64,000 bases of DNA from Deltaproteobacteria bacterium (GTDB lineage Bacteria; Bdellovibrionota_C; UBA2361; J135). Location: contig JACKAH010000004.1 in the NCBI GenBank assembly GCA_020635175.1, positions 51,995-115,994 of the forward strand, given 5' to 3'. The position numbers and the translations under genes were made by a program. Shown in pieces: positions 32,480 to 51,111 of the stretch (its first letter is position 1; each line of letters opens with the position of its first letter). Under the pieces are notes generated by a model. The model was given only the letters and a program-made list of their open reading frames with translations, was not told where the DNA came from and searched no databases.

Positions 32480-33091
32480 TTAGATGCTAGTAGGTATCCC
32501 TACCTTCTTTGAGCTTACTGCAGCACAATGCAGCTGAGATGGCAGTAATATTGTTGGTGATTTCACACAAACGTCCCACTGCATGCAGAGAGTGTCCATT
32601 TCACAGTTTTCCCCCTGCTTATTGGTTGAGATTGGAGCGGCCGTTGGATCTTGGCATTGTCTAGGTAGAACCACTATCTCACCCTCTTTAAGACTACTAA
32701 TCTGTCCATCCCACTCAAATGCAGTCTTAATTTTATCATCAAAGAGTCTATCAGCTTCACCTAGAACCAAATTCACTGTTTTAGCTATCTGCTGATCAAG
32801 CTTACTTGGATTTGTGCAAAAAGATCTTAAGTAGCCGTAGCTAGTAGAATTAACTGGGAGCTTAAGTTGGTTTGCATTTGGAGCGGTAAGGTTTCCATCA
32901 TTTACGACTTCAGCCATGCTAATGCGAGCAGCAATGATAGCTAACCATTGAGCACCTGATGTGTATTTAGAGTAAGTAACGAAATCGATGGCACCGAAGA
33001 CTAAAAAGACGAGAACTGAAATACTACCTGCTACACTTAGCAAATACGAACCTCTCTCGTTCTCAATTCTTTTTTTACTACCCTTATTCAC
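32480..33091 (-). CDS. TadE/TadF-like pseudopilin (module A), 203 aa
   Basis: TadE-type N-terminus RIENERGSYLLSVAGSISVLVFLVFGAIDFVTYSKY...AIIAARISMA. Clear paralogue of the 197-aa product of 47578..48171. Confidence 0.6.
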   Translation of the reverse strand: MNKGSKKRIENERGSYLLSVAGSISVLVFLVFGAIDFVTYSKYTSGAQWLAIIAARISMAEVVNDGNLTAPNANQLKLPVNSTSYGYLRSFCTNPSKLDQQIAKTVNLVLGEADRLFDDKIKTAFEWDGQISSLKEGEIVVLPRQCQDPTAAPISTNKQGENCEMDTLCMQWDVCVKSPTILLPSQLHCAAVSSKKVGIPTSI

Positions 33092-33119: not shown

Positions 33120-33416
33120 CTAAATCTTCCCAACCGGGTAAACTATCTCTTGAGCACGCGGATCCGCCTCATTTGGACTTTCCTTCAGAGGCTTTTTATA
33201 CTTCGAAGACCAAGCAGCTCCTGGATAACTAGTGTATCCTTTCGCAACATCATGTACCTGCTGCTGAATAACTTTGCTTTGAGTCGTCGCAAGAAGTTTA
33301 TAAGTACTCTTTGCTGAGGGTAATCCTATTCCGATTAGAAGCGCCATAACCATGCCAGCTTCCATCATGCTGATTCCAGCTTCATTTCTACGAATTTTTC
33401 TTAGAGATACAGACAT
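33120..33416 (-). CDS. Flp-like prepilin (module A), atypically long (98 aa from ATG 33416)
   Basis: The leader plus hydrophobic core MSVSLRKIRRNEAG/ISMMEAGMVMALLIGIGL resembles the Flp G/XXXXEY processing region (Glu kept, Tyr replaced by Ala). Same operon position as the clearer Flp-like gene at 48179..48403. Confidence 0.45.
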   Translation of the reverse strand: MSVSLRKIRRNEAGISMMEAGMVMALLIGIGLPSAKSTYKLLATTQSKVIQQQVHDVAKGYTSYPGAAWSSKYKKPLKESPNEADPRAQEIVYPVGKI

Positions 33417-33470
33417 AAACAACCCATCCAAAAATATATCTATTCTATCTTATTCAAGTTTCATGCCGCA

Positions 33471-34388
33471 CTATAGTGGTGCATGAACAATATCGTTACC
33501 AAATTCTGCTAGAGGCGCAGTCTCATTCGCATGAAGATCAGTCTCTGTGCTGTGACCATCTGTTCCATCAACAATCGGATCATCGATGTCAGGCCCCGCA
33601 GATTTAATTAACTTAAGCGCTTTAATTGACTTAGCCAGTCTACCAGATTCAGCAACGAAGGACTTTCCAATCTCAAGAAGTATTGGATTTGCTGCAGTTA
33701 GTGAGTTTCCTTCCTGTTCGTTCAGCACCTGAACCACCTCTTCTGAGATAGCTGTAAGCTTAGTGTTAACTTTTGAACTTAGCACAGCAGTATTTAGTTC
33801 ATATTCCTCACCTCGTGCAGCAAGCGCCTGAGGAGCTTTGCTTCTTTGGCGCTCGTATCTTCTCAAAGCGCGAATAGCTCTAGCTTTTCTTTTTCTAAGC
33901 TTTCTCTTAGAGATTTTTCCTGCTGCACTAGCAGATTTTGCTGGAGCTGAAATTATAGGAGCAGATGGCGTCGGAGTTGTTGGCAAACGCACTCCTAATA
34001 CCTGCTGAGTTAATGACTGAGTCATACATACTCCACCTAAAATAAACCTCTTTAAAACTCCAGCTAATGGAGCTGGGAGTGGAGCAGGTCCTGAAATTAG
34101 AGCAGGTGAAATAGTAACTATCTTAAGCCTCGTTGAGCTACTAAGAGAAGAGAAGCAAACACCTGGAGGAGGAGGATTTACGCAATCATTGTAAATATCC
34201 TCAGCGCTCTCTAATGTATCAAAATCAGCTTGTGACATCTGAGCAGAGAACTGCAGAGATAATTTAGCAACGTTTACTGCTCTTAGAGCCATCCCGATAC
34301 ATTGGCTAATCTGAGGACTTTGAGCATTTGCATTTGCGACAAACCCTAAACTAACCAGTGAAGCTAAAAAGTAAGTTTTGACTTTCAT
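33471..34388 (-). CDS. Secreted protein, family D (my label): small Cys-containing N-domain, then low-complexity/basic region, then a helical acidic tail
   Basis: Signal peptide MKVKTYFLASLVSLGFVANANA/QS with GAAGGAG upstream of ATG 34388. Contains the strongly basic stretch KISKRKLRKRKARAIRALRRYERQRSK. No family recognised. Confidence 0.6.
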   Translation of the reverse strand: MKVKTYFLASLVSLGFVANANAQSPQISQCIGMALRAVNVAKLSLQFSAQMSQADFDTLESAEDIYNDCVNPPPPGVCFSSLSSSTRLKIVTISPALISGPAPLPAPLAGVLKRFILGGVCMTQSLTQQVLGVRLPTTPTPSAPIISAPAKSASAAGKISKRKLRKRKARAIRALRRYERQRSKAPQALAARGEEYELNTAVLSSKVNTKLTAISEEVVQVLNEQEGNSLTAANPILLEIGKSFVAESGRLAKSIKALKLIKSAGPDIDDPIVDGTDGHSTETDLHANETAPLAEFGNDIVHAPL

Positions 34389-34416
34389 AACAACTCCTTC
34401 AAAAACCTTATAAATC

Positions 34417-35142
34417 TTAAACGCCTGATGCTGGGATAGGATCACACAACCAACTTAGATTCTCAGGATCCATAGCGTGAACTGCGCCAGGCGTACATGG
34501 GTCACTTGTAAAAGCAGTATTTAACATTGCTCTGACAACAGCTCCATTGTTAATACTAGCTTCCCAGTTAGAAGTAGTATCTTCAAACATAGCGCGGTAC
34601 ATTCTAAATGGACTTGCTTGAATACATGAACCTGTAGTCATAGCGTAGTCTTCTGCTGAAAAGATAAAGCTAAGCGAATCAGTCTTCTCACTGTCGGTTA
34701 AATCATCAATGGTAGAACCCGCAGGATGTCCAAAGTGAGTAAATGCAGTTTTAAGCGTGAATGTTAAAAGTGCGTGATCAAGAGCCTTGGTAGGATCGGT
34801 TGGGTCAACGACTTTCTTATTGATTACTGTGTTTAACATCTCATGAAAACCGAGTGCATATACTCCATGAATTGGATTACCAGGGACACAGTATGCAGGG
34901 CTTCCAAACTGAATTCGGTTGATTATCTCTCTAACTGTATAATCAACTGTTTCTGCCATCTGCTCACAAGTTTCGAGACTTTGATAAGGCTGACCTAAAC
35001 CGTAAGTACATTGGCTAGTAGAACCTGAGTTTGTGTAGTCATTTAACACTCCTAAAACATCCGGTCCCGTAGCTAGGGCTGAGAAAGTTAAGGTTAAGGT
35101 GCTAATTCCTAAGCAGAGAGCATTTCTTACAACACGTTTCAT
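34417..35142 (-). CDS. Secreted six-cysteine protein, family M (my label)
   Basis: Signal peptide MKRVVRNALCLGISTLTLTFSALA with GGAG upstream of ATG 35142. Six Cys in the mature part. Aligns with the products of 37285..38049 and 49179..49979 (NSGSTSQCTYGLGQP...ETC...YCVPGNP...VDPTD...). Confidence 0.65.
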   Translation of the reverse strand: MKRVVRNALCLGISTLTLTFSALATGPDVLGVLNDYTNSGSTSQCTYGLGQPYQSLETCEQMAETVDYTVREIINRIQFGSPAYCVPGNPIHGVYALGFHEMLNTVINKKVVDPTDPTKALDHALLTFTLKTAFTHFGHPAGSTIDDLTDSEKTDSLSFIFSAEDYAMTTGSCIQASPFRMYRAMFEDTTSNWEASINNGAVVRAMLNTAFTSDPCTPGAVHAMDPENLSWLCDPIPASGV

Positions 35143-35170
35143 AATAACAACTCCAAACAAAACCCTAAAA

Positions 35171-36151
35171 TTAAAACATCCCAGTTAGACGCTTAAGCAC
35201 ATGATTATAAATGTAGTTATCTAATGGAGACCCGATTACGTATGGTCCAGTTCCGAGAGGTCCATTTGCACTCGCCAAAAGGTAAGCATCTACGTTAGGA
35301 AATCTACTAGTATTATAATCATAGTAAAAGAAGTCACTCGGAGATGGTGCCATTGCTGGAACAGAACCGTATGCTTCAGTTAACAAAGTAGTAACAATTG
35401 GAGAGATTGGATACTGCTGCCAACTCTGATCAATGAAAGCCATCGCAAAGAAGGCCCAGTAAACATCAGGAAATTTACACAAAATCTGTCCATAAGTTGG
35501 AGAACTCTGGTTATTATCTGTCTCAAACATGTGACAGATAGTTACGGTAAAAGTGTCAGCTAAATCATCAATACATTGCTGGTCGCCTGCAGGGCATCCA
35601 CCGCCTTGAGCGTTTAACTGAGCAGCATCATATCCACGATGATGACCGTAAAGTAAATTAAATCCAAATCTGTATATATTCGGTATCGCTTCACAACCTG
35701 GAAGAGCTTGGCCATCCTGTAAGGAATGTACCTCAGGACAGGTCTGAGAATTATAGTTCTGAACAAAGATTCTTTTGTTCATCTCGTTAATTTGAGAGAA
35801 CACCTGAGCAGCTGTCTGCGGTTGACCAATTGCACAAGTTCCGTTGAATCCTGGGTCGTCGTTGAATGAGTACCAAACAGACTCTTCGAACTGAAGAGCA
35901 ACTGCACTGTTTTGGACATAGCCAGTTATCGGCTCTGGTGTTCCTTCACACTGACCAGACTCACCCATCGTAGCATAAGCAGGGGTAAGGAAAGATGAAG
36001 CATCCATTCCAACTGTACATGAGTCTGTCTGTCCATTGCTTGTTAAAACTCTTCTTGGTGGAAACAGTCCAGCTTGAGCAGAAGCAGTAGAGATAAAGAA
36101 CACTGCTGAAGCAGATGTTAAAATTAGGAACTTATTAAAGTGGCTGAGCAT
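35171..36151 (-). CDS. Secreted cysteine-rich protein, family L (my label)
   Basis: Signal peptide MLSHFNKFLILTSASAVFFISTASA/QA (ATG 36151, GGGAGAG upstream). Shares TDSCTV...GQCEG...ICHMFE...LCKFPDV with the 38066..39214 product. More distantly resembles the two L genes of module B. Confidence 0.65.
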   Translation of the reverse strand: MLSHFNKFLILTSASAVFFISTASAQAGLFPPRRVLTSNGQTDSCTVGMDASSFLTPAYATMGESGQCEGTPEPITGYVQNSAVALQFEESVWYSFNDDPGFNGTCAIGQPQTAAQVFSQINEMNKRIFVQNYNSQTCPEVHSLQDGQALPGCEAIPNIYRFGFNLLYGHHRGYDAAQLNAQGGGCPAGDQQCIDDLADTFTVTICHMFETDNNQSSPTYGQILCKFPDVYWAFFAMAFIDQSWQQYPISPIVTTLLTEAYGSVPAMAPSPSDFFYYDYNTSRFPNVDAYLLASANGPLGTGPYVIGSPLDNYIYNHVLKRLTGMF

Positions 36152-36279
36152 TGTAACTCTCCCAAACAACGATTTTAAAAAACGACTTTCTGCACCCAAC
36201 ACGAAAAGCCGATATCCAAAGTTATTTGAGATTTCGTGCAACATTTATTCCCCAGCGTGCCATAACAATTTGCTTACTT

Positions 36280-36336
36280 GTCCCCAAAATGATGCTTTAT
36301 TGAAGCGACTCAAGTACTTATCTGATCCACCTAAAA
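36280..36336 (-). promoter_or_regulatory. Conserved bipartite element upstream of an L gene (copy 1 of 4)
   Basis: The minus strand reads TTTTAGGTGGATCA-N38-GGGAC. Same 14-mer and same 38-nt spacing as the copies at 39338-39394, 51006-51062 and 52113-52169. A TTGAGT hexamer sits at spacer positions 10-15. Confidence 0.55.
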
Positions 36337-36410
36337 TTAATATTAGTTAAAAATACGAACAGTTCTTATTCAAATTGAGTTTTTAAAGAAGCGCGACTAA
36401 AAGGAAGGAG

Positions 36411-36451
36411 TAAGAAAAAATAGCACTAGCACACCTTAAAGTGTGCTAGTG
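36411..36451 (-). terminator. Rho-independent terminator after the first L-M-D triplet
   Basis: The minus strand has a perfect 11-bp stem CACTAGCACAC/GTGTGCTAGTG (36441-36451 pairing with 36424-36434) and a 6-nt loop, followed by CTATTTTTTCTTA. It lies 34 nt downstream of the stop at 36485. Confidence 0.75.
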
Positions 36452-36484
36452 AGCAATCAAAAAGTATCTTTAATCAGGTCTGAA

Positions 36485-37261
36485 CTAGAATTCCTTTAAC
36501 TGTAATTCATGCCCGCCTGAGGCTTCAGTTGTAACAACAGTATCAATAGTCACAACTCTGTCTGTAGGCTTAGGTGGCTCTACGGTCAGATTAACCTCTT
36601 TTAATACCTGAATAGACTTCTCAAGAATTCTAGCCTTTGTAACCAAGGCAGGAAGAATCTTGGCATAGTGCTGCTTAACCAGCTTCTTTTGATTAAGTAA
36701 GTTCTGGAGATTTGCAATCTCTGTCTTGATTTTACCAAGCTCGCCATCATTAGTATCAGGAGCTTCAGCTGTATGGCCCTCATCTATTGAAGGTTCGATC
36801 TGAGCATCTCCTGAAGCATCAAGTCTTTGTGGCTCTGATAACCCATCAGGTCCAGGCATTGCACTTGTCTCTACAGATTCCTTTGAGCTTAAATCTCTTG
36901 AGCTAGTACTTACCTGCTCAACTGAGGCAGTCAGAGAGGTAGTAGCTGCAATCTGAGTCGAGCTTGCTGTGATTGCTGCTTTCTTAGCTTGAAATTGCAA
37001 TTTCTTTATTCTTTTCTCTATCTGGCCAACGGTAGAGTCACAACCATTATCGATAGAATTTTGAACATTATTAATCGCTGCTGCTAAGTTACTCAGGTCA
37101 AAGCTTTCGACCTCCCCCAGCTTAAGATGATGATCTCCCTGGATAATCTGGTCAAGGAGCCCATAAACACCTTTCACAAAGCAGTTGCTGAACTCTGCAT
37201 TCGCAGCTGGAGCAACTAGGAGCGAGGCAAAAACTGAGGCTAAAATTATTCTCTTCTTCAT
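36485..37261 (-). CDS. Secreted protein, family D (my label): N-domain with 2 Cys, Ser/Thr-rich region, C-terminal coiled-coil-like segment
   Basis: Signal peptide MKKRIILASVFASLLVAPAANA/EF (ATG 37261, AAGAAGG upstream). Low-complexity ITASSTQIAATTSLTASVEQVSTSS. Heptad-like KIKTEIANLQNLLNQKKLVKQHYAKIL. Confidence 0.6.
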   Translation of the reverse strand: MKKRIILASVFASLLVAPAANAEFSNCFVKGVYGLLDQIIQGDHHLKLGEVESFDLSNLAAAINNVQNSIDNGCDSTVGQIEKRIKKLQFQAKKAAITASSTQIAATTSLTASVEQVSTSSRDLSSKESVETSAMPGPDGLSEPQRLDASGDAQIEPSIDEGHTAEAPDTNDGELGKIKTEIANLQNLLNQKKLVKQHYAKILPALVTKARILEKSIQVLKEVNLTVEPPKPTDRVVTIDTVVTTEASGGHELQLKEF

Positions 37262-37284
37262 AGCAAACCTTCTTATCTTTAAAA

Positions 37285-38049
37285 CTAACAAACCAAATCA
37301 GCAGCATCTGAACCAATGTAGTTTGGATCACCAGCTACACAAGGTCCACTTGGATTAGCAGCGTCGTTCTTATCAGCAACTGTTGCTGTAATCATCGCTA
37401 CTGCTTCACTAACATGATCCAACGTAGTAGAGGAAAGTGCTCCTAACGTAGCTGAATTTGATGCTATATAATCAAACATCGCAAAGAAGCTTCCTTTACA
37501 GACATAACCGTATAGGGCTTCAAACACGACTAGACTAAGAACGTCTTCAAACATTTCGTCGTTAGCTGCTTCTGCGGTTCCTGGCGCAACAGCAGGAAGT
37601 CCAAGTAATGCAGCTTGCTTGTTATTATAGTGATCAATAGCAGCCCAGATTAGGCGATTCATAGGATGCTTAAGAGTCTCTGAGAAATTATCCGGGTTAA
37701 CAAACGAACCGTGTCTAATTAGCTCTGCGAATCGAAAGGCTCCATAGACTTCAAATGCATCTAATGGATTTCCCGCTGCGCACCAAAACATATTATCAAG
37801 CTGAAGTGCGGCAGTTCGATACTTAGTCTCATAGTATATCTTATCATTTAGCCCAGGATCACAGCTCAAAAGTGTAGCTGTAGGCGTCCCAGCGCCATAG
37901 ATACACTGACCAGCACTACCTGAGTTATCAACCTTTGACAGCACGGAGAAGATAGACCACTCAGCAACTGCTACGTTTGATAGGCCCATTACGATAGTGC
38001 ATGCCAGGAAAGAATTTCTTAATAATGTTTTCATTGCTATTCTCTTCAT
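37285..38049 (-). CDS. Secreted six-cysteine protein, family M (my label)
   Basis: Signal peptide (MKRIAMKTLLRNSFLACTIVMGLSNVAVA/EW). Six Cys in the mature part, the last one being the C-terminal residue. NSGSAGQCIYGAGTP...LSC...WCAAGNP...VNPDN aligns with the other M proteins. Confidence 0.65.
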   Translation of the reverse strand: MKRIAMKTLLRNSFLACTIVMGLSNVAVAEWSIFSVLSKVDNSGSAGQCIYGAGTPTATLLSCDPGLNDKIYYETKYRTAALQLDNMFWCAAGNPLDAFEVYGAFRFAELIRHGSFVNPDNFSETLKHPMNRLIWAAIDHYNNKQAALLGLPAVAPGTAEAANDEMFEDVLSLVVFEALYGYVCKGSFFAMFDYIASNSATLGALSSTTLDHVSEAVAMITATVADKNDAANPSGPCVAGDPNYIGSDAADLVC

Positions 38050-38065
38050 CTTTGAACCTCTAAAA

Positions 38066-39214
38066 TTATTGAGCATTACCGCAATACATATCGAACGCGA
38101 GCAGAACCATCTTTGTAAACGGGTCTGATAATGTTAAAGGTTGGCCAGTAATCGGACTAATAGTTGTCCCAAGTCCAATCACATTCTCAACATTATGAAG
38201 CTTTCCAGTGGCATCCCGATGACACAAAGCGGTTGAAGGAAAGATTGGGTTGTAGCTAGCATCAACTGTGTAGCTTCCAATCGGTCCATAAAGAACCTCA
38301 ATGAACTCTTTCATTCCGACTTCACCAAAAACCTGTCCTGAACCGGCCCAAGCTTCGTAGCTAAAAACTTTAGCTGGGTGAGCGCTTGAAAGTGGATGCA
38401 ATGTAGTGTCTTTATGCAAAGTCCAAGGTCCAGCGATGGTGTCAGGATACTTACAGTACGTAGTCTGCACCGGTAATCCTGTGCCTGGGTCAATAATAGT
38501 TTGACCAGTAATAGGATCTACTTTATCTCCGATCTCATACAGGTTACAGATTGCAGCTAAAAGGAAGTTAAACATCGACTTAACGCAACCCCAATCTGGA
38601 CAAGCTGTGTATGGCCCAACAGCTTTTGCAAGCGAAATTGGATCTTGAAAAAGTGGATTTGACGGGTCAAGGTTTCTTCTAATGATACCGTAAGTAATCC
38701 CGGTTACAATTTTCTCAAGGTGACCATTAGCATGGTAACAATTTGAAGCAGAACCTGGTCCCTGTGTGATGGCCTCTGCCTCTTTACAGATGTAAGGGTT
38801 CTGAATATCTACCATCTTAGAAAGAAAGTCATCTGCTAACGCTACTAGCTTTCCTCCGTCGAGTTCCTCTCCAGGAATAACTGCACCCGGTAACAAATAA
38901 CCAGGGTCACATTCAACTCCAGAAGTAGCAACGGTTGACCAGATAGCTTGGGTCGCACCCATTTCAGCTATGCTAGTGTTTTCTAATAAAATCCCAGTCT
39001 GAGGATCCGAGCCACCAGTACATGTTGCTGTACCAACTGAGACATCAACATAATTTGGACCTGGAGGATCAAGAACTGTACAGGTATCAGTATTGCTACT
39101 TGCAGCAAACAGGGGACCAACATCTGGTAATCCCGGTTCACTTGATAACTGCGCGTTAGCTAGGCTTGTGAAAGTTAGTAAACAAGCACCAAAGGCGAGA
39201 ATATGTTTATTCAT
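38066..39214 (-). CDS. Secreted cysteine-rich protein, family L (my label)
   Basis: Signal peptide MNKHILAFGACLLTFTSLANA/QL. TDTCTV...ATCTGG...ICNLYE...YCKYPDT parallels the 35171..36151 product. Confidence 0.65.
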   Translation of the reverse strand: MNKHILAFGACLLTFTSLANAQLSSEPGLPDVGPLFAASSNTDTCTVLDPPGPNYVDVSVGTATCTGGSDPQTGILLENTSIAEMGATQAIWSTVATSGVECDPGYLLPGAVIPGEELDGGKLVALADDFLSKMVDIQNPYICKEAEAITQGPGSASNCYHANGHLEKIVTGITYGIIRRNLDPSNPLFQDPISLAKAVGPYTACPDWGCVKSMFNFLLAAICNLYEIGDKVDPITGQTIIDPGTGLPVQTTYCKYPDTIAGPWTLHKDTTLHPLSSAHPAKVFSYEAWAGSGQVFGEVGMKEFIEVLYGPIGSYTVDASYNPIFPSTALCHRDATGKLHNVENVIGLGTTISPITGQPLTLSDPFTKMVLLAFDMYCGNAQ

Positions 39215-39337: not shown

Positions 39338-39394
39338 GTCACTGAACAGATTAGTTCTATAAAGGAATCAATCGCTTAAATGATCCAGCTAAAA
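39338..39394 (-). promoter_or_regulatory. Conserved bipartite element upstream of an L gene (copy 2 of 4)
   Basis: The minus strand reads TTTTAGCTGGATCA-N38-GTGAC, with TTGATT at spacer positions 10-15. It lies 124-180 nt upstream of ATG 39214. Confidence 0.55.
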
Positions 39395-39445: not shown

Positions 39446-42334
39446 TTATTTACTTATATCGAATCTATTGATGACACGATTAAGCTCAATTGTTACACGC
39501 TTAAATAATCTGTCCTTATATTGTGAGTAAGTTTCATTTCCAAGTCCTGCATATTTCTTTGTAATATGCACAAGGGTAATTCCCTCTCTAATAGGCTCAT
39601 TAATACACAGATCTGGATTTACTACTGTAAAGTTAGGTTCTCCATCTAATGGCGTGTTACAAGCTAGGCCAAATGTCGTGCAATCCTTACACATTGCATA
39701 TCGATAAGTATTAGCATCAGGAGTTACAGAAGCTAACGGTGGCTTTAGCCCATCAATTAAAACCTTCTTTTTATTCTCGTCAGTGCTGTTTAATGGGTAA
39801 TCATCTAGCACAACGACCACCTCAATCCCTTCATCCACCATCCGATGAGCCATCTGCACGGTTTCTTTAATAGAGCGGAAAAAAGGCACAGGATCTGGGT
39901 TATCAGCGAGCGCTCCGGCATTTACAGATAACACATCTGGAGTCGGAGGAGGTGGAAACCAAGCCCCATGAAATGTATCTCTTAATACCTGATATAGGCT
40001 TAGCTCTATCAATCCATTTGTAAAAATAACCGCGACCCGCTTTACTTTCTCTGGTTCGGGCACAAATGTTGTATTTGAAAAGACATTATACATATTGAGC
40101 AAAGCACCAGAGCTCAATGAATCTGTAGTTGTGTACTCACGCTTTGGGTACACGTTACTGCTTTCAACAGACCCCAAATATAAACTTCGAGCTCCTGTTA
40201 CGAGGTTAGAGTCATCAGTTGTGTCCAAAATACCGTACCCTGATTTAGAGAAACCCCCTGCCCTAATTGTAGACATCGCACTTGCAACGTTTAAATTAGT
40301 AGCATCCAGCGTATTCTCCATCGCTCCAGGAGTTGTTACATCAGGACAAATTCTATACGGATCCGTAATGTAATTAGTAGTTACCTCATCTCTGTTATAG
40401 CACTCGCCTGTAGGTAAGCCCGTCGTAGAACAGCCGGCAACAAACGGGTTTGGGGTTGCATTGATCCTATCTCTATCCATCCATGCAGGCATTTTTCCAT
40501 CTGTGAACGGAGGTTCATAACATGGGCTATTGAATGGACCACTGGTCGGAGATAATGGGTTAGGATTCGGCCATAGTGAATCTTTATTATCATTTAAAAC
40601 TGCAACAGTGTTGCTTCTTTGATCACCAAAGCAGTCCCCTGATCTAATATTTACAGATGCTGGAAAATCCTTAGGTGGGTTTGCACTATCAAGGGAGTTA
40701 TTAGTAACTGGAGCCCAAGAGGGGCTAGATCTAAAAATAAAATTCAGCAAATTCCTATCTAAAGTTGGTATCTGATGTTTAGTTGGGTCAGCACACTGAG
40801 TCGATGGAGCAACACTAGTAGTTAAATCATAAAAATTTGGTAAGGCCGTAAAGATCTGCACATCGGGTCCTGGAAGCGCATCTGGCCTTATATCTAAAGA
40901 CATTTCACGAGCACAGATACTCATCGGCTGAAGCAACCTATCAAATGCAGCTTGACGAGTAAGTTGTTGGTAGTCTTCGTAAGTTGATGGATCAGTCGTA
41001 TCTACAGGTAAGAGATCCGTATTTCCAAATTCCTGTAATATATAATCCTTACCTGTAAGGGAGCCTTGAAAAGCTCCTGGCGAAGGCCCAAGAGTTGGAA
41101 GTTTTAGAGTCGTGCGCTCATCCCCAGCAAAAGCAGCAGGCATTCCACCACTATATCTATCCTCATAAGAGATAAGTGGCATTAATGGAATAATCCAATT
41201 GCTATAGGTAAATGCACCAAATGGAACTTGATCTCGCTCAAGCATATACATGAATTGCTGTGCAACTCTTTGAGTCCAAAGCTTGTGCGGTCCAAAACAT
41301 CTGTAGGCAAGCTCAGTTTGAGTCATGACACCATGTCGATATTTATACTGCGCTGGAATGGTACTAGCCCAAGCTCTAGTAAAAGGACCTCCGTCCATCC
41401 GTGGGATATACTGCATAGGATCGGGTGGAATTGTCCCAGCGTAGGACGAGGATTGTAAATGGCTAATCGTCTGCGGCACAACATCTGGGTAAGACTGAAG
41501 ATAAGCAGTTGCTTTATCAGAGGGCACTAAAGTAGAGATCACAACGTCCTGTGTCGGTACCCCATTTCCATTTACGCCCATGGTAATCTCTTTCGTCGCA
41601 AATGGAGTGATATAACTTGGGTCAGGAGGAGGTCCTGCTCCTAAAAAAGCAGGTGGTATCCCCGGCAGATAGGATTCATAAAGCATCGGCAAACCCCTAT
41701 CTTCAAGCAGCTGATCCTGTACAGAGGTAAGCGCTCCCCCTGCATCTGAGTGAGCAAAGTGAGTCGGGGGAATTTCGTAGTCAAAAATTCTATAACTTGG
41801 AGAAGAAAAATCCACTCCAACCATCGCAACAGGTGGTTTTTTAACGGCACAACCCTCAGCCCCTCCTATATAAGGGGTAGTTGATAGTAGATTTGTAAAG
41901 TTAAACTGTGCCCTACAGTTATCAAGCTCAATACAGAGCTCAGCTCCTTTAATTGTAACTGCGTTAATTACCTCGTCAGTATACGTAACCTTTATATCGC
42001 AGATATGATCATTGTTCTTAAATCCAATATCATTCCAACTGAAGTTTGTGGTTGGGCAATTTGCTAGCGGGATATTAAAATCTAACCCTAGGTGCTGACA
42101 CGCTACCTGAACCATGTCCGCTTGAGCTGGGCCAACATTTGACGCTGCATTTAGAGCGCTAATTATTGCATTATTAAGACGTGTGCGTGTAGTTAAAACC
42201 TCGGCAGATTTAATTGTCATCATGCCGTAGACAAAAAGCAGCAGAAAACCTATCAGGAAAAAGAAAATTACATAACCCGCGCCGCTTTCTTCACGTGAAC
42301 TTCTAAGCTTATTTAAAACTCTAAGTCTATTCAT
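39446..42334 (-). CDS. TadG-like giant pseudopilin (962 aa) with a split, MIDAS-degenerate vWA-like domain (module A)
   Basis: TadG-type N-terminus ESGAGYVIFFFLIGFLLLFVYGMMTIKSAEVLTTRTRLNNAIISALNAAS. vWA beta1-like PPVAMVGVDFSSPS (Asp at aa 175) and beta4-like RVAVIFTNG (aa ~773), separated by ~600 aa. Paralogue of 43896..46817. Confidence 0.65.
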   Translation of the reverse strand: MNRLRVLNKLRSSREESGAGYVIFFFLIGFLLLFVYGMMTIKSAEVLTTRTRLNNAIISALNAASNVGPAQADMVQVACQHLGLDFNIPLANCPTTNFSWNDIGFKNNDHICDIKVTYTDEVINAVTIKGAELCIELDNCRAQFNFTNLLSTTPYIGGAEGCAVKKPPVAMVGVDFSSPSYRIFDYEIPPTHFAHSDAGGALTSVQDQLLEDRGLPMLYESYLPGIPPAFLGAGPPPDPSYITPFATKEITMGVNGNGVPTQDVVISTLVPSDKATAYLQSYPDVVPQTISHLQSSSYAGTIPPDPMQYIPRMDGGPFTRAWASTIPAQYKYRHGVMTQTELAYRCFGPHKLWTQRVAQQFMYMLERDQVPFGAFTYSNWIIPLMPLISYEDRYSGGMPAAFAGDERTTLKLPTLGPSPGAFQGSLTGKDYILQEFGNTDLLPVDTTDPSTYEDYQQLTRQAAFDRLLQPMSICAREMSLDIRPDALPGPDVQIFTALPNFYDLTTSVAPSTQCADPTKHQIPTLDRNLLNFIFRSSPSWAPVTNNSLDSANPPKDFPASVNIRSGDCFGDQRSNTVAVLNDNKDSLWPNPNPLSPTSGPFNSPCYEPPFTDGKMPAWMDRDRINATPNPFVAGCSTTGLPTGECYNRDEVTTNYITDPYRICPDVTTPGAMENTLDATNLNVASAMSTIRAGGFSKSGYGILDTTDDSNLVTGARSLYLGSVESSNVYPKREYTTTDSLSSGALLNMYNVFSNTTFVPEPEKVKRVAVIFTNGLIELSLYQVLRDTFHGAWFPPPPTPDVLSVNAGALADNPDPVPFFRSIKETVQMAHRMVDEGIEVVVVLDDYPLNSTDENKKKVLIDGLKPPLASVTPDANTYRYAMCKDCTTFGLACNTPLDGEPNFTVVNPDLCINEPIREGITLVHITKKYAGLGNETYSQYKDRLFKRVTIELNRVINRFDISK

Positions 42335-42337: not shown

Positions 42338-43015
42338 TTATCGCTTTGGTACATAAACCCCACTCTGCTCAAATGTCTGAGTCCAGAGTAAAATCCTAAT
42401 CTCTCCTGTGCAGGCCCATACAAAAAATGGTGCATAATCTAAAACAACCTGGATTGAATTTGCTGTATTATTAGGATCCAACACATATTCTGATTCAATC
42501 GGGTTTATAGGGCGATGCATATCGACCATACGACCCTGATAATTTGCTGCCTGAGCTTTCATTAAATTGAGATGAGCATCGGTTCCAGGTGATGATATGT
42601 CTGGGGTGCAGATATCAAAAGCGGGTGTATCAATTACCCAACCAATATTGGGAGAGCCTGAAGTTGTATTTACATTAAGGTAGCAGATAGCTGTCTGACA
42701 GGTAATGTCACTTGTGTTCTGAAATAAATTTGAACCAAAGCCTAAATTGCTGCCGAGCCAATTATTAACAGAGTTAAGTATGCCTGTATTTGCATCAGGA
42801 GTACTGGTCGTACTCCAGGGAACTATATCCCCCGCTTGATTGGTGGTGAATAAATCATACTTTTTAGAATTAAAGGCGGCAAAGTACGCTGCATTGATAT
42901 CACGACGGATCTCAAGCATGGTGTGGAATGCAAAGATAGCGTTAAAAACGGCATACAATACAACCACAACAACCACTAATTCTACGAGTACGTTTGCAGA
43001 ATCCTGTCGTTTCAT
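42338..43015 (-). CDS. TadE-like pseudopilin, second type (module A), 225 aa
   Basis: N-terminus MKRQDSANVLVELVVVVVVLYAVFNAIFAFHTMLEIRRDINAAYFAAF. Paralogue of 46824..47501. Its stop lies 3 nt before the TadG-like start. Confidence 0.6.
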   Translation of the reverse strand: MKRQDSANVLVELVVVVVVLYAVFNAIFAFHTMLEIRRDINAAYFAAFNSKKYDLFTTNQAGDIVPWSTTSTPDANTGILNSVNNWLGSNLGFGSNLFQNTSDITCQTAICYLNVNTTSGSPNIGWVIDTPAFDICTPDISSPGTDAHLNLMKAQAANYQGRMVDMHRPINPIESEYVLDPNNTANSIQVVLDYAPFFVWACTGEIRILLWTQTFEQSGVYVPKR

Positions 43016-43196: not shown

Positions 43197-43604
43197 TTAA
43201 ATCTTTAATATTGGTTCTATCTTAGGATCTATCGCTTGGAGCAGCTCCATAAGCTTTGAGATCGTTGGTTTAGCCTTGCCCTGTTCATAACGCGCAAAGG
43301 AATTTGCAGAAGAAGAGCCTAAACGTTTTGCAACTTCTAGTAGTGTTAATCCGTATTTTACTCGCAGCCTTTTAAGCATCAATGCGATCAATTTATCTTC
43401 TTGGCTGCAGCCTATTAAAAAACTTTGCTTAGATTTTTTAACCAGATGTAAAACAAATTTAGGATCATTAATTAGCTCTAAAACAGCATCCTGAATCATC
43501 TCTTCACTTTCGTGAATTGAACGGCCCTGAGAGATCAAGTCCAGCGCAGGGATTTCAGCCAACCAAAACTTCCCATCTTTGAACACCTTACCTTCTAGAA
43601 ACAT
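43197..43604 (-). CDS. hicB: HicB-family antitoxin with a C-terminal XRE-type HTH
   Basis: HicB-like N-domain (KDGKFWLAEIPALDLISQGRSIHESEEMIQDAV) and HTH (YGLTLLEVAKRLGSSSANSFARYEQGK). Overlaps hicA by 1 nt. Confidence 0.8.
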   Translation of the reverse strand: MFLEGKVFKDGKFWLAEIPALDLISQGRSIHESEEMIQDAVLELINDPKFVLHLVKKSKQSFLIGCSQEDKLIALMLKRLRVKYGLTLLEVAKRLGSSSANSFARYEQGKAKPTISKLMELLQAIDPKIEPILKI

Positions 43605-43789
43605 TACTGATTCCCTGGATTTTTTCTTGCCATTTTGATTATCTTTTTTGCTAACCTTTCAGCTATTTCATTATGTCTAGGAATAGGCTCCTGCTCTCTG
43701 CCATTGGTCCAGATATCGTGATTGCTTCCATGCCGAAGCAACCACCATCCTAGTAATTTCATTTGTTTTTCTAAATCCCTTCTCTTCAT
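43604..43789 (-). CDS. hicA: HicA-family mRNA-interferase toxin
   Basis: MKRRDLEKQMKLLGWWLLRHGSNHDIWTNG...IPRHNEIAERLAKKIIK matches the HicA (YcfA-like) pattern. ATG at 43789 is preferred over the TTG at 43816. Confidence 0.8.
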   Translation of the reverse strand: MKRRDLEKQMKLLGWWLLRHGSNHDIWTNGREQEPIPRHNEIAERLAKKIIKMARKNPGNQ

Positions 43790-43792
43790 ATT

Positions 43793-43808
43793 TACACATA
43801 TATGTGTA
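43793..43808. promoter_or_regulatory. Perfect 16-bp palindrome, candidate HicB operator
   Basis: TACACATATATGTGTA, ending 4 nt upstream of the hicA ATG. A TTGCAA hexamer lies just upstream in the direction of transcription. Confidence 0.5.
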
Positions 43809-43875
43809 TCTTGCAACAGATTGCTTTTTTATCAAATAGTACTCAGCTATTTTTATAGAAGATTGCTTGAATATT

Positions 43876-43895: not shown

Positions 43896-46817
43896 CTACT
43901 TACTTGGTTTAAAGCGATGTATGATTCGATTAAGCTCAATTGCAACTCGATGAAAAATTCTTTGCTGGAACTCAGAGTAATTTTCATCATCTGCCCCGCC
44001 AGGATTATACAGCTTAGAGACACGCACTAGATCTATTCCTGCTCGAGTGTGTTTCTTATGACAGGTTTCAGGAGTCGTAGATGAGATAGCAGGTTCTCCA
44101 TCTAATTGAGCACTACAATCAAGTCCAAAGTAATTACAATCCTTACAAATTGCATATGCATAGCTACTATTAGTGGCAGCTGCCCTACCAATTGGCTCTC
44201 TCAATCCATCAATAAATACTTTGCGCTTATTTTCATCAGCTGCATTGGTTGGATAATCGATCATTACGATTACTACCTCGATTCCATCATCTACCATGCG
44301 ATGAATGACCTGGAGAGATTCCTTTACGGCTCGTATGAATGGCGCTCCATCAGGTTCCTGTACAGCCTGGCCAGCTCTAACTGGAAGTACATCTGCGACG
44401 GGCTCATTTGGAAACCAAGCACTATGGTGCCTCCCATCAAGCACATCGTACATACTCAGATTACTAACACCGTCGGTAAAAAGAACTGCAACACGCTTAA
44501 CATCATTAGGATTCGGTGAAACACCTGTTGAACTGTTTAAGATATTATAAGCATTTACCAATGCTCCGGAGGTAAAGTCATCGACCAAAGGTTCACGCTT
44601 TGGATAGACATTTAAGCTCTCAACAGATGTAAGATAAAGATCTCTCGCGTTCGGCGTTAAGTCAGGAATCGAAGGCGAGGTCCTAGGAAGATCTATCGGG
44701 TATCCAGACTTAGTGAATCCACCAGCACGTAAAGCAGAGAGTGCAGAGGCTGCATTTAAATTACTTGGATTTAATGTTGTATCAATTGCAGTTAAGTCAG
44801 AGCAAACTCTAAAGGGGTTAGTTACATCTGATGGCACAACCTCGTCACGATTGTAACAGGCGTTATCTATGCCACCAGTTTGAGTATTACACCCAGTTGC
44901 GTTTGAAACCTGAGCATCGTTTCTATCTCGAGACATATAAGGAGGAATTCTCTGTCCAATTGTCACCCAAGTATTAACAAAACATGGGCTTAATCTATTA
45001 TATGGTGGATTTAGATCTGGTTGAGGCAAAAGAGAATCTTTACCATCAGGTGTTTGAACAGTTCCAAACAAAATTGACATCTGATCTCCAAAACAATCAC
45101 CAGGATAAATTTCATTGGCAGTAACCTCAATACTTCCACCATTTGGAATACCATTTGCGTATTCAGGTAGGTCGTCGTCTTCATTTGAGGTAGTTAACCA
45201 GTTCTTATTAGAGCGAAAGACAAAATTTAATAGTCCTCTCTCAAGTGTTGGAATTTGATGTTTTGAGTTATCAGCGCAGACAGTGTTTGGTTCAAGTACG
45301 CGACTATAATCAAATGCATCAGGTAAAGCTGAAAACGCATGTAGCCCAGGTCTTACCTCATGATTCATCTCCCTTGCACAGATAGTCATGGGCTGAAGGA
45401 TTCTATCAAATGCACTCTGCCGATTCAGAGCTGTGTAGTTTTGATAGTTAGCTGGCAAGCCATCATCCGTAGTATCCGTTGGTAATGCATCGGTATTACC
45501 AAACTGCTCAGCAACAAAATCTCTGCCATTTAAGGTTCCCGGTAGAGAAACCGGATTGGGACCAAGAGTGTGTACATCTAAGGTACTATATATATCAGCT
45601 CCATTTGTTGTACTGTATGTTCCCCACTCCCCACCTGATCTAATCTCATATGGTACAAGTGGCATAATCGGCATAATCCAGTTGCTGTATGCTAAAGCTC
45701 CAAATGGAATCTCATTATCATCTAACATATACATAAACTGCTGAATCATGCGCTGATACCAAAGCTTATGTGGTGCAAAACAACGCTGCGCTAACTCATT
45801 CTGAGTCATCACACCGTGGCGATATTTATAATTCGTATAGTTAGGTTGCTGCTCAGCCCAAGCTTTTGTCTTATTTCCACCATTTATACCTGGAATATAC
45901 TGAACCGGATCTGGTGGAAGAGGAGCGGCATAGGTACTTACGTTACCGTAGCCCTCAGTTTGGGGAACAACATCCGGCATAGATTGTAGATATGCAGAGT
46001 TGATAGTCGACAGTGAAAGAATCGTGTCACCAACTGAGTCAACACCATTTCCGCCAGGCATTGTGATCTCTTTTCTAGAGAATGGCAGATCATATGGAGT
46101 GTATGGACCAGCTACTCCTACCGCTCCAGGAAATGAAATCTGCTGTGTCGGTAAATAAGAGTCGTACATAAATGGAAGAGATCGATCGATTAAAAGATCC
46201 TCTTCCGCTGAAGTTAACACCGGATATCCCGCATCGGAGTGTAAAAAAGGAGGTGGTGTGGTATCTGAATTAAAGGCTTTAACTATAGACCTAGAGTAGT
46301 CTGCCATAATCATCACAACCGGTGGCTTTTTTTCCATACACTGCTCAGCGCCAGCTATGTAGGGGTTGCTGCTTAAGTACTGCAGAAATGTGAAAGTCGA
46401 TTTGCAATTATCAATCTTAAGGCAAGCTTCTTCAGGTTGAATATTTCCAGGGACAATATTTCGGGGTGTATATGTGAAATTAACATCACATTTATAACGT
46501 CCATCATTAAATCTAGCTTCACTAAGTGGGAATGAAGCAGTGCTACAATCGATTGAACCTAAATCAAATCTAGTCTTTAGTTGATTGCAAGTGATTCGCT
46601 GCATCTCAGAGCTGTTTGTCGCTCCATTTGCAACCGCGTTTAATGTTGAAGCAACAAAATTATTCAACTCTAAACGGGTTGTGTACATCTGCTCGGTTTT
46701 GAGCACAATCATCCCGTACATAAAGAGCACGGTAAAGCCAATCAAAAAGAAGATAAGGATAAAACCTTGTTGCTTCTTAGAAAATTTTGCACCTTCATTT
46801 TTCTGCTTGTAGCTCAT
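43896..46817 (-). CDS. TadG-like giant pseudopilin (973 aa) with a split vWA-like domain retaining MIDAS-type residues (module B)
   Basis: N-terminus KQQGFILIFFLIGFTVLFMYGMIVLKTEQMYTTRLELNNFVASTLNAVANG. PPVVMIMADYSRS (DxSxS, Asp at aa 173) and RVAVLFTDG (Asp at aa 782). Strongly conserved central block shared with 39446..42334 (KYRHGVMTQNELAQRCFAPHKLWYQRMIQQFMYML...). Confidence 0.65.
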   Translation of the reverse strand: MSYKQKNEGAKFSKKQQGFILIFFLIGFTVLFMYGMIVLKTEQMYTTRLELNNFVASTLNAVANGATNSSEMQRITCNQLKTRFDLGSIDCSTASFPLSEARFNDGRYKCDVNFTYTPRNIVPGNIQPEEACLKIDNCKSTFTFLQYLSSNPYIAGAEQCMEKKPPVVMIMADYSRSIVKAFNSDTTPPPFLHSDAGYPVLTSAEEDLLIDRSLPFMYDSYLPTQQISFPGAVGVAGPYTPYDLPFSRKEITMPGGNGVDSVGDTILSLSTINSAYLQSMPDVVPQTEGYGNVSTYAAPLPPDPVQYIPGINGGNKTKAWAEQQPNYTNYKYRHGVMTQNELAQRCFAPHKLWYQRMIQQFMYMLDDNEIPFGALAYSNWIMPIMPLVPYEIRSGGEWGTYSTTNGADIYSTLDVHTLGPNPVSLPGTLNGRDFVAEQFGNTDALPTDTTDDGLPANYQNYTALNRQSAFDRILQPMTICAREMNHEVRPGLHAFSALPDAFDYSRVLEPNTVCADNSKHQIPTLERGLLNFVFRSNKNWLTTSNEDDDLPEYANGIPNGGSIEVTANEIYPGDCFGDQMSILFGTVQTPDGKDSLLPQPDLNPPYNRLSPCFVNTWVTIGQRIPPYMSRDRNDAQVSNATGCNTQTGGIDNACYNRDEVVPSDVTNPFRVCSDLTAIDTTLNPSNLNAASALSALRAGGFTKSGYPIDLPRTSPSIPDLTPNARDLYLTSVESLNVYPKREPLVDDFTSGALVNAYNILNSSTGVSPNPNDVKRVAVLFTDGVSNLSMYDVLDGRHHSAWFPNEPVADVLPVRAGQAVQEPDGAPFIRAVKESLQVIHRMVDDGIEVVIVMIDYPTNAADENKRKVFIDGLREPIGRAAATNSSYAYAICKDCNYFGLDCSAQLDGEPAISSTTPETCHKKHTRAGIDLVRVSKLYNPGGADDENYSEFQQRIFHRVAIELNRIIHRFKPSK

Positions 46818-46823
46818 CTGCTT

Positions 46824-47501
46824 TTATCTCTTTGGAACAAAGACCCCTGACTCATTAAACTTTCCATACCAAAGAAAGATTCGATACGTACCTCTACAAG
46901 CCCAAACAAAATATGGAGCGTACTCAAAGTAGACCGGATATACTTCATTGCTAGACGGCGTTGGCATAACATCACGATCTAAAATGTATTCAGTCTCTTT
47001 AGGATTAAGCACTGTTCCTTTAACCTTATCATAGTATTCAAAGGCCTCAGTTCTTAAACTTTCAAGAGTAGTGCCAGCTGACGGGGCAGCAACCGATGGG
47101 ACACAAAAATTATCAGGATTTGATGAGCTTAAGACTCTTCCAAAATTAGCTGGATCTGTTGTTTCAACATCCAAGTAACAGATCGTAATTTTACAAGTTA
47201 TCTTAGATGAATTTCTGTAGAGCGTTGAACCAAAGTTCATGTTATGTGCTAGATTTGCCTCTAACTCGTCAACTAACTCTTGATGAACATTTGCCTCAGT
47301 GAATTTTACTAAATCACCACCAACATTTGTTGTAAAAGCTTCGAGGGTAGGAGTTGTAAAGACCGAGAAGACAGAAGAGTTAACGGTCCTACGAATATCC
47401 TCCATACCGTGCAAACCTAATATTCCATTTAAGACGGCAAGCAAAACAACGAAAGTAACTAAAACCTCAATCACGGCAGAGCCTGGCTCTTGCCTTTTCA
47501 T
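46824..47501 (-). CDS. TadE-like pseudopilin, second type (module B)
   Basis: MKRQEPG/SAVIEVLVTFVVLLAVLNGILGLHGMEDIRR carries a G/XXXXE-type processing motif. The start at ATG 47501 was chosen by homology with 42338..43015; the track ORF extends to 47567 (GTG). Confidence 0.6.
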   Translation of the reverse strand: MKRQEPGSAVIEVLVTFVVLLAVLNGILGLHGMEDIRRTVNSSVFSVFTTPTLEAFTTNVGGDLVKFTEANVHQELVDELEANLAHNMNFGSTLYRNSSKITCKITICYLDVETTDPANFGRVLSSSNPDNFCVPSVAAPSAGTTLESLRTEAFEYYDKVKGTVLNPKETEYILDRDVMPTPSSNEVYPVYFEYAPYFVWACRGTYRIFLWYGKFNESGVFVPKR

Positions 47502-47577
47502 CTTGACGCAAATGGATCTAACTATCTGTAACATAGTGAAACAATAAGCCATTACTGTGCGCAACACTATATCAAAT

Positions 47578-48171
47578 TTATATAACGTTCATCTCAGAAC
47601 TAGCTGTATGACACACTGTGTGAGAATGTAAAAAGATTGATGGTGGCCGTACACATACTTGCCACTGAGAACATGCATCTGAGCTTTGACAGTTAGCTGC
47701 ATTCTCTCTAACAGTACTTCCTGGGTCAGAGCATTCGCGTGGAACTATCACTACCTCACCCTCTTTTATACTCTCAGTGTTGAGATCCCAGTTTACCGCT
47801 GTCTTTACCTTATTTCCAAAGACACGTTGCGCTTCACCTAATGCTAAGTTTATCACCCTTCTTTTTTGAGCTTGCATGCGTCCGCCACAATAGCTCATTA
47901 AATAGCTATCATCTTGAGAAGATACTGGAAGCTTTAATAAGCCTAACACAGGAGCGCTCCCAGTTTTATCATTAGGTCGCTCTGCAATGCTTACTCTAGC
48001 AGCTGTCATGGCGACCCACTGCGCAGCAGATGAGTATCTAGAGATTGAGATAAAATCAAAAGCTGAGAATATAATTGTCGAGATAAACACAAATGAGATT
48101 GCAGCCCCAATTGTGTATGCACCACGCTCGTTCGAAAACATTTTACTACCCATATTATTTTGACCCGACAT
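47578..48171 (-). CDS. TadE/TadF-like pseudopilin (module B), 197 aa
   Basis: FSNERGAYTIGAAISFVFISTIIFSAFDFISISRY...AMTAARVSIA. Paralogue of 32480..33091 along its whole length, including the C-terminal Cys pattern. Confidence 0.6.
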   Translation of the reverse strand: MSGQNNMGSKMFSNERGAYTIGAAISFVFISTIIFSAFDFISISRYSSAAQWVAMTAARVSIAERPNDKTGSAPVLGLLKLPVSSQDDSYLMSYCGGRMQAQKRRVINLALGEAQRVFGNKVKTAVNWDLNTESIKEGEVVIVPRECSDPGSTVRENAANCQSSDACSQWQVCVRPPSIFLHSHTVCHTASSEMNVI

Positions 48172-48178
48172 CTTTATT

Positions 48179-48403: not shown

Positions 48404-48446
48404 AAATTTATCCCCTAAACTTAAGCGTGCTTTAATCAAGTTCTAA

Positions 48447-49148: not shown

Positions 49149-49178
49149 CCTCTAATCAAGACAACTAAAATTTAAACC

Positions 49179-49979: not shown

Positions 49980-50019
49980 TTTTCTACCCTTATTATTAAA
50001 ACCTTTTTAACCTCTAAGC

Positions 50020-50913: not shown

Positions 50914-51005
50914 TATATTACCCCACAATAAACCAGAAACACATAAACTAAACATAAGACAGTGCAAAACTCGTGCTACAAAATGTGGGAAATCATCCCA
51001 CTTTT

Positions 51006-51062: not shown

Positions 51063-51111
51063 AAACCCCTTAAATTAAAATGGTAACTTTTCGTAGATTT
51101 TGCAACAGAGC

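Follow-up and report, generated by a model that had tools for sequence, protein, structure and literature searches.

Cysteine-framed, putatively secreted proteins encoded with Tad-type minor-pilin genes in uncultured Bdellovibrionales: candidate non-pilin tip partners or cargo

Six genes for putatively secreted, cysteine-containing proteins, arranged as two consecutive triplets of the types L, M, and D, occupy positions 33471-39214 of a 64,000-nucleotide stretch of DNA (the window) from a Deltaproteobacteria bacterium (GTDB lineage Bacteria; Bdellovibrionota_C; UBA2361; J135; assembly GCA_020635175.1, contig JACKAH010000004.1, positions 51,995 to 115,994 of the forward strand). The triplets are included in a larger cassette, [L]n-M-D-F-E-E'-G, in which F, E, E', and G resemble the minor pilins of Tad pili. 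Gene order in related loci indicates that the conserved unit is the M-D pair joined to the minor-pilin set F-E-E'-G, not the triplet, and that L is an optional, genome-specific addition. By the same comparisons, L, M, and D form three orphan families linked to Tad tip modules within one narrow group of uncultured bacteria akin to Bdellovibrio, and they probably represent a component not yet described for Tad pili, either non-pilin tip partners or cargo. In predatory bacteria, interchangeable minor-pilin tips of Tad pili were recently shown to set prey range; here the tip-gene cassette always comes with two further, predicted exported, cysteine-framed proteins, with extra paralogues in one genome. 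If these proteins ride on the tip or leave it, Tad tips are not pilin-only, and the M-D pair becomes a candidate recognition or effector component.

The genes concerned are the following open reading frames (ORFs), with lengths in amino acids (aa), a slash marking each cleavage site, and Cys standing for cysteine:

38066-39214, minus strand: L1, 382 aa ORF; signal peptide end ANA/Q; 11 Cys in the mature protein; exact match to MCB9029971.1 (hypothetical protein)
37285-38076, minus strand: M1, 263 aa ORF; likely start 38049 or 38034; six-Cys framework
36485-37291, minus strand: D1, 268 aa ORF; likely start 37261
35171-36244, minus strand: L2, 357 aa ORF; likely start 36151; 9 Cys in the mature protein
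34417-35160, minus strand: M2, 247 aa ORF; likely start 35142; six-Cys framework
33471-34445, minus strand: D2, 324 aa ORF; likely start 34388; D-type architecture with an extra Lys/Arg-rich stretch
33120-33431, minus strand: F_A, Flp-like minor (adapter-type) pilin; prepilin motif G/ISMME followed by a hydrophobic helix
32480-33091, minus strand: E_A, TadE-like pseudopilin, 203 aa; 43% identity to E_B
39446-42334, minus strand: G1, TadG/KilN-like large tip pseudopilin, 962 aa; 47% identity to G2
42338-43015, minus strand: E'_A, TadF-like pseudopilin, 225 aa; motif A/NVLVE
43197-43816, minus strand: hicA/hicB toxin-antitoxin pair (Pfam HicA_toxin, E=1.4e-7; HTH_3 and MqsA_antitoxin)
43896-48439, minus strand: module B pilin set, comprising F_B (48179-48439), E_B (47578-48171), E'_B (46824-47567), and G2 (43896-46817)
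48447-52053, minus strand: module B secreted set, comprising L-type B_313 (51112-52053), L-type B_315 (50020-50967), M-type B_266 (49179-49979), and D-type B_233 (48447-49148)

Every gene of the block from 32.4 to 52.1 kb lies on the minus strand, and the block is flanked by a long-chain acyl-CoA synthetase gene (FadD-like, 52228-54117) as a housekeeping neighbour and, on the other side, by an alternative complex III (ACIII) operon running from 32246 downward. Read 5' to 3', the order is FadD, B_313, B_315, B_266, B_233, F_B, E_B, E'_B, G2, hicA, hicB, E'_A, G1, L1, M1, D1, a terminator-like hairpin, L2, M2, D2, F_A, E_A, and the ACIII operon. The six ORFs thus stand as the two consecutive triplets that the first-pass annotation described; with the starts preferred there, the gaps within triplets are 16, 23, 28, and 28 nucleotides (nt), and Shine-Dalgarno-like sequences (GAGG, AAGAAGG, GGAG, AAGGAG) lie upstream of the starts. 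Its placement of the triplets between TadG-like and Flp-like genes is borne out by the ORF list and by analysis of the neighbours. Apart from hicA and hicB, the proteins of the block gave no Pfam or NCBIfam match, and each window protein that was looked up formed a singleton cluster annotated as hypothetical. A mobile island was considered and rejected, the G+C content being flat at 0.38-0.44.

The region from 43.9 to 52.1 kb (module B) is a second copy of the cassette, in the order L-L-M-D-F-E-E'-G, an assignment made because the Cys frameworks of its four secreted proteins match those of the L, M, and D types; its F_B is an 86-aa Flp-like ORF. Module A holds the same parts permuted: E'-G, then L-M-D, then L-M-D-F-E. 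Together, the window has two pilin sets, three M-D pairs, and four L genes, and the duplicated pilins of the two modules share 47% (G1/G2), 43% (E_A/E_B), and 38% (E'_A/E'_B) identity. The hicA/hicB pair lies exactly at the junction of the two modules, which, with the permutation of module A, points to a rearrangement there or to re-integration of a circular duplicate.

Searches with profiles of G found orthologues of 29-45% identity in a handful of uncultured genomes. A genome scan with a two-sequence G profile returned no related locus; with a four-sequence profile it returned four loci, and a metagenome scan returned one. Where a relative has an organism name, this is mostly 'uncultured Bdellovibrionales'. 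The nearest orthologue of G (45% identity) is on L003 (RFKT01000260.1), a 2.9-kb contig binned as 'Candidatus Dadabacteria'; this label is probably a binning error, since the other named relatives are all Bdellovibrionales. The gene orders of the related loci are as follows:

L001: FadD, M, D, F, E, E', G, ACIII
L004: M, D, F, E, E', G
L002/L005: M, D, M, F (inverted), E, E', G
L007: M, D, F (inverted), E, E', G
L011/L012: FadD, two genes, M, D, M, F (inverted), E, E', G
L006 (partial): E, E', G, ACIII

In each of the six genomes whose upstream side is visible (the window through module B, L001, L002/L005, L004, L007, and L011/L012), M-D immediately precedes F-E-E'-G, at gaps of 7-69 nt from the pilin set. 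L-type genes occurred, among the loci found, in the window only. The Flp-like gene is co-oriented with the module in the window, L001, and L004, and inverted in L002 (2579-2782), L007 (1568-1891), and L011 (12475-12699); the inversion was found among the M-D-M subclade. L004 has in addition a second, different Tad-like set at 13760-17635, with a canonical Flp (G/IVSVEY), two TadE-like genes, and a 781-aa TadG-like protein that ends in a VWA-like ...LVLATDG motif; no M-D pair adjoins this set.

The kinships within module A were assessed by Smith-Waterman alignment against 300 shuffles, with signal peptides removed and p values from the Gumbel distribution. L1 and L2 are paralogues (z=8.1, p=1.8e-5), as are M1 and M2 (z=14.9, p=2.9e-9); both relationships had been proposed from the letters by the first-pass annotation, whose L and M motifs are present in the pairwise alignments. 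D1 and D2 are alike in architecture only, as it had also judged, their sequence similarity being non-significant (z=1.6, p=0.07). The results of blastp agree for all three pairs. Sequence similarity between the secreted proteins of module B and the L, M, and D proteins of module A was non-significant in pairwise and profile comparisons, and profile comparisons between M subfamilies were likewise non-significant, except that B_266 matched an L001/L004 M-type profile (P=2.6e-4). For this reason, the module B and cross-subfamily assignments were made from Cys-position statistics together with gene order and operon position. The Cys positions of the mature proteins are:

M1: 20, 34, 61, 155, 208, 225
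M2: 21, 35, 61, 149, 192, 209
B_266: 25, 40, 67, 170, 215, 239
L2, first eight: 18, 41, 79, 111, 126, 159, 166, 179
B_313, first eight: 18, 40, 73, 116, 123, 153, 157, 190

Only 28 in 100,000 random placements fit as well as the Cys positions of L2 and B_313, and the L2 framework also matches B_315. For M1 and the M-type protein of L001, three of 200,000 placements were equally good; for M1 and that of L004, two of 200,000; and for Cys 3-6 of M2 and the L002 protein, two of 20,000. The frameworks are therefore kept across subfamilies though sequence similarity is undetectable, a pattern that fits extracytoplasmic, disulfide-bonded, fast-evolving proteins. A ten-sequence M profile was also collinear with a four-sequence L profile over 201 columns (P=0.018), pairing C-x-x-G-x-P at the third Cys and setting C-[KQ]-[YF]-P-D of L1, L2, and B_266 against the fourth Cys of M. 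L and M may then be distant relatives in one superfamily, which we offer as a lead only; if true, each 'triplet' would consist of two divergent paralogues and D.

All six proteins begin with a positive charge, a hydrophobic stretch, and an A-x-A site of the signal peptidase I type (ANA/Q, AVA/E, ANA/E, AQA/G, ALA/T, ANA/Q), as previously described; signal peptides and cleavage sites were assigned by eye. Exactly six Cys remain in mature M1 and in mature M2. The earlier argument from even Cys counts to disulfide bonds stands for M and D but not for L1 and L2, in which the mature counts of 11 and 9 are both odd, and disulfides and secretion are predicted features throughout. The D-type proteins (seven of seven) share a Cys pair 38-47 residues apart that encloses a hydrophobic hairpin, followed by a linker of low hydrophobicity, an amphipathic helix, and a tail that is mostly acidic. 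D1 has this pair 47 residues apart, with a linker rich in Ser, Thr, Ala, and Glu, an amphipathic helix, and an acidic tail, and the pair in B_233 is spaced by 47 residues as well. We agree that L, M, and D lack a lipobox; lipoproteins were rejected on this ground, the Cys in the L1 signal peptide lying inside the hydrophobic region. The proteins have classical n-h-c signal peptides and polar mature N-termini, do not show the class III pilin signal (basic leader, Gly/Ala at -1, Glu at +5, hydrophobic alpha-1 helix), and gave no Pfam TadE, Flp_Fap, or Tad match at E<=1. Because of their A-x-A Sec signal peptides, L, M, and D are not taken to be pilins.

The identity of F, E, E', and G as a Tad-type minor-pilin set is well supported, if not proven, by sequence features and gene order. 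A G-x4-E prepilin motif followed by a hydrophobic helix was found across the loci in six of six F, three of six E, and six of seven E' proteins, and Glu5 is absent from all G-type proteins. The E-type proteins of the window lack Glu at +5 (32480-33091, RG/SYLLS; 47578-48171, RG/AYTIG), and the orthologues in L001, L002, and L004 have it. None of the pilin-like proteins in the window gave a Pfam TadE (PF07811), Flp_Fap (PF04964), or TadG-type match at E<=1. Among the orthologues, the L002 E protein matched TadE (E=0.003, 18.1 bits, below the cut-off of 22.9) and the L004 F protein matched Flp_Fap (E=0.0015, 18.7 bits, below the cut-off of 32.2), both at the correct place. An AlphaFold2 model of G1 from a four-sequence alignment reached a mean predicted local distance difference test (pLDDT) score of 35, with only both ends modelled: residues 21-165 as a long helix and a four-strand sheet (pLDDT 58-77, in a weak overall model), and a C-terminal alpha/beta part (pLDDT 55-74). 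Foldseek with this model gave MIDAS/VWA domains as best matches, non-significant at E=0.3-0.8, and a PDB sequence search with the G profile gave nothing. Classical tad loci, such as that of A. actinomycetemcomitans, end in the order Flp, TadE, TadF, TadG, and the order F-E-E'-G agrees with this.

The secreted proteins themselves gave no family. L, M, D, the module B proteins, and their orthologues had nothing meaningful in Pfam, NCBIfam, PHROGs, or PADLOC, with no match near threshold, and PDB sequence searches with L and M profiles returned nothing relevant; the first-pass annotation had likewise recognised no known family. Matches to toxin, lectin, or enzyme domains stayed at the level of noise. 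A defence system was also considered, and rejected on the negative PADLOC result. The AlphaFold2 model of M2, from a five-sequence alignment, is all-alpha at low confidence (pLDDT 49), and Foldseek of this low-confidence model against PDB gave a best E of 1.5 and a TM-score below 0.3. The M family is tiny by the searches made: an exhaustive HMMER profile search of 1.84 billion representatives found seven clusters, four of them the inputs, and a word-indexed search of 5.8 billion proteins with M profiles found only self and L002-type proteins.

A conserved DNA element of about 95 nt and a hairpin help to delimit the likely transcription units:

39381-39394, 36323-36336, 51049-51062, and 52156-52169, minus strand: core of the upstream element (TTTTAGCTGGATCA; TTTTAG[CG]TGGATCA)
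36424-36451, minus strand: terminator-like hairpin with a 12-bp stem and T-run, immediately after D1

Each of the four element copies lies about 140-175 nt upstream of an L-type start. The window holds no further copies, where 0.59 matches would be expected by chance, and the element recurs in L001 (5364-5377), upstream of M, the first gene of the operon in that locus. It contains repeated CTAAGAA and CATTTT sub-motifs. Considered as RNA it gave no consensus fold and no Rfam match, for which reason it is probably a DNA promoter or operator; comparison by eye with the sigma-54 and sigma-70 consensus gave no convincing fit. The hairpin after D1 is the strongest terminator-like site between 32.3 and 52.25 kb. 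The number of such sites in this region is at chance (14 against 14.4 expected), so the hairpin is judged on its stem and position. From the elements and this hairpin combined, the likely units are E'_A-G1; L1-M1-D1; L2-M2-D2-F_A-E_A; B_313; and B_315 through G2. A GTGGGA...TCCCAC hairpin with T residues lies at 50985-51001, between the element and the B_315 start codon, and the leaders of B_313 and L1 have similar hairpins; the leader hairpin may act in attenuation, or it may just terminate the gene before it.

The arrangement bears on whether the secreted proteins belong functionally with the pilins at all. They could be lineage-specific secreted or surface proteins that merely share a variable spot between FadD and ACIII with the pilin genes. 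The FadD/module/ACIII locus does look like a conserved, insertion-prone site, which also took up hicAB, and L1-M1-D1 appears to be transcriptionally autonomous. We nevertheless hold chance neighbourhood to be very improbable, because the order, orientation, and short gaps of M-D beside F-E-E'-G are kept in all six genomes, the outer neighbours vary (L004 adjoins neither FadD nor ACIII), and the same upstream element heads both the M-D-F-E-E'-G operon of L001 and the L-led units of the window. The element is probably a shared control heading each unit, and is counted here in favour of a functional tie to the pilins.

Our tentative preference is that L, M, and D, exported by Sec and stabilised by disulfides, accompany interchangeable Tad/Kil-type tips as non-pilin partners, with a role like that of PilY1, a reading we regard as quite possible. 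After Sec export and removal of the signal peptide by signal peptidase I, oxidation in the periplasm would fix each protein in a fold held by disulfides, M forming a six-Cys, apparently all-helical framework and D a Cys-bounded helical hairpin with a flexible linker and a C-terminal amphipathic helix. There they would bind a priming complex made of the Flp-like adapter F, the TadE-like E, the TadF-like E', and the 960-aa TadG/KilN-like G, and extension of the pilus would carry them outward as a fast-evolving surface for recognition of prey or substratum. The several copies of pilin sets, M-D pairs, and L genes in the window would provide alternative tips, as in Myxococcus. This proposal builds on the genes, their paralogy, signal-peptide features, Cys frameworks, and operon linkage, and on the lack of known relatives, all of which are observed; the export, disulfide bonding, tip binding, and function of L, M, and D we infer from the genomes. 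In its favour are the tight and conserved linkage of M-D to F-E-E'-G, the Tad-like character of the neighbours, the non-pilin nature of L, M, and D, and published precedents.

Rates of change and copy number add to the case. Among the pilins, identity stands at 24-47%, but M and D are too diverged for pairwise detection, which implies that M and D evolve faster than their pilin neighbours. The faster divergence and the extra copies would argue for exposure and specificity, and the fixed single M-D pair per module would argue for a structural role. The same observations can be set against the possibility that M-D stays in the periplasm as a regulator or assembly factor controlling pilus priming, extension, or retraction, in the manner of Bd0108/Bd0109. 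A folded M and a partly low-complexity D, encoded together at the head of a Tad-related operon, do parallel the arrangement and periplasmic targeting of that pair (PMC3818213), and the named relatives are labelled Bdellovibrionales. Regulators of conserved machines are usually slow to change, however, whereas M and D diverge faster than the adjoining pilins; three M-D pairs and four L genes fit specificity variants better; and the likeness to Bd0108/Bd0109 is drawn from arrangement only. We therefore consider a regulatory role doubtful.

Linkage and signal peptides serve equally well a model in which L, M, and D are pilus-dependent cargo or effectors, soluble in the periplasm, that bind tip minor pilins transiently, are pushed through the secretin at extension, and act on prey or surfaces. 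The tandem, fast-diverging copies downstream of G1 resemble variable cargo arrays, and several M-type proteins and B_315 have x-P-x-x-N-x-D before the first Cys, recalling the N-terminal secretion signals of TcpF and CofJ, although this peptide depends on by-eye cleavage sites and is a lead only. There are published precedents for such cargo (PMC9565799, PMC10120004, PMC6048534). Against this, the M/D framework and its one-per-module position are kept across six genomes, which looks more structural than polymorphic effectors would, and the proteins show no enzyme or toxin motif and no Pfam, NCBIfam, or PDB match. Tad pili are also, to our knowledge, not known to secrete proteins. Secreted cargo thus seems to us unlikely.

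Several points also weigh against a role as tip partners. Tip binding by L, M, and D is deduced from genomic context, and the models of M2 and G1 (pLDDT 49 and 35) are too poor for fold assignment. L1-M1-D1 is probably not co-transcribed with pilin genes, given its terminal hairpin and its own element. No Tad ATPase, platform, or secretin gene was found in the window or in the fetched flanks (to 10 kb), which for us also marks the F-E-E'-G clusters as tip-type and apart from the machinery. The strand contributed in trans by PilY1 is reported to come in cis from TadG/CpaL (PMC13533445), so a Tad tip has no obvious need of a non-pilin partner, and the Myxococcus tip clusters are described without such proteins (PMC12075869).

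A more far-reaching version joins tip partner and cargo: the Tad pilus of this Bdellovibrionales clade might serve for delivery, its interchangeable tips receiving, while still in the periplasm, a dedicated load of M-D (and L) proteins as cargo or adhesins from a hitherto unrecognised Cys-framework superfamily that diversifies by duplication to match prey. We think this improbable as a whole, but if true this would be the first Tad (type IVc) pilus found to carry or secrete proteins other than pilins, and would supply a missing link in how Tad/Kil pili recognise or harm prey. The analysis also defines three orphan protein families and an upstream element usable for finding co-regulated genes. 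The evidence is genomic throughout, the organisms are uncultured, and the families are very rare.

Elsewhere in the window, TamB is joined to four POTRA repeats and an Omp85 barrel in a single 1898-aa ORF at 7044-12740 (plus strand); as a rule, TamB and TamA are two proteins. Three large ORFs (751, 541, and 601 aa), at 13456-17338 (plus strand) and 1361-3166 (minus strand), have no Pfam match.

Comparison with known systems offers several partial models. In Bdellovibrio bacteriovorus, Bd0108 and Bd0109 form an interacting, Sec-exported periplasmic pair co-transcribed with Tad genes at the hit locus (PMC3818213). Like M-D, this is a Sec-exported pair in the Bdellovibrionales, one member small and flexible and the other folded. 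Bd0109 differs in its reported YD repeats and pilin-like N-terminus (PMC3818213), features not seen in M or D, and the neighbours of the hit locus are Tad machinery genes instead of a tip-pilin set; the two pairs are compared here by arrangement only. TcpF of Vibrio cholerae and CofJ of enterotoxigenic Escherichia coli leave the cell through type IVb pili, for which they bind the minor pilin at the tip (PMC9565799, PMC10120004, PMC6048534). Like L, M, and D, they are soluble, Sec-exported proteins encoded in a pilus operon by the tip pilin, with no function readable from their sequences. In contrast, their pilus is of type IVb, not Tad/IVc, and each is a single protein, not an M-D pair with L; no homology was detected in PDB sequence searches with L and M profiles or by Foldseek with the low-confidence M2 model.

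PilY1/PilC is a Sec-exported non-pilin encoded among minor-pilin genes and docked on the tip complex of the type IVa pilus (PMC13533445). With its ordinary Sec signal peptide and its place in a minor-pilin operon (fimU-pilVWXY1Y2E), it is the nearest functional model for M, D, and L (PMC13533445). The likeness does not extend to sequence or domains: neither the C-terminal beta-propeller (Neisseria_PilC) of PilY1/PilC nor its frequent VWA domain was matched by L, M, or D in Pfam or NCBIfam. PilY1 is a beta-propeller protein of more than 1000 aa, whereas M is about 220 aa and predicted to be helical, and the sizes of L, M, and D range over only 220-360 aa. Tad systems also differ in that TadG/CpaL is reported to supply the docking strand itself (PMC13533445).

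The closest parallel for the cassette as a whole is the Kil Tad pilus of Myxococcus xanthus, which has four interchangeable tips made of KilL/KilM/KilN (TadE/F/G-like) and encoded in separate clusters (Herrou et al. 2025, PMC12075869). A dedicated Flp adapter is encoded in one of the tip clusters, many disulfides are predicted in the tips, and tip analogues were predicted in Bdellovibrio (PMC12075869); in B. bacteriovorus the Tad genes are scattered, and among them is a tadG standing alone (bioRxiv 10.64898/2026.07.08.737194). The Kil clusters (KilL/M/N with the Flp adapter KilO or KilK) resemble those described here in being pilin-only clusters away from the Tad machinery, in combining a small Flp-like, two TadE/F-like, and one very large TadG-like pilin, and in having several paralogous copies per genome and many cysteines in a predatory lineage, G being likened to KilN by description. 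Sec-type accessory proteins are absent from the descriptions of both the Kil and the B. bacteriovorus Tad systems (PMC12075869; bioRxiv 10.64898/2026.07.08.737194). Kil tips were published as pilin trimers only, whereas here each module adds one to four predicted Sec-exported non-pilins, namely M, D, and sometimes L.

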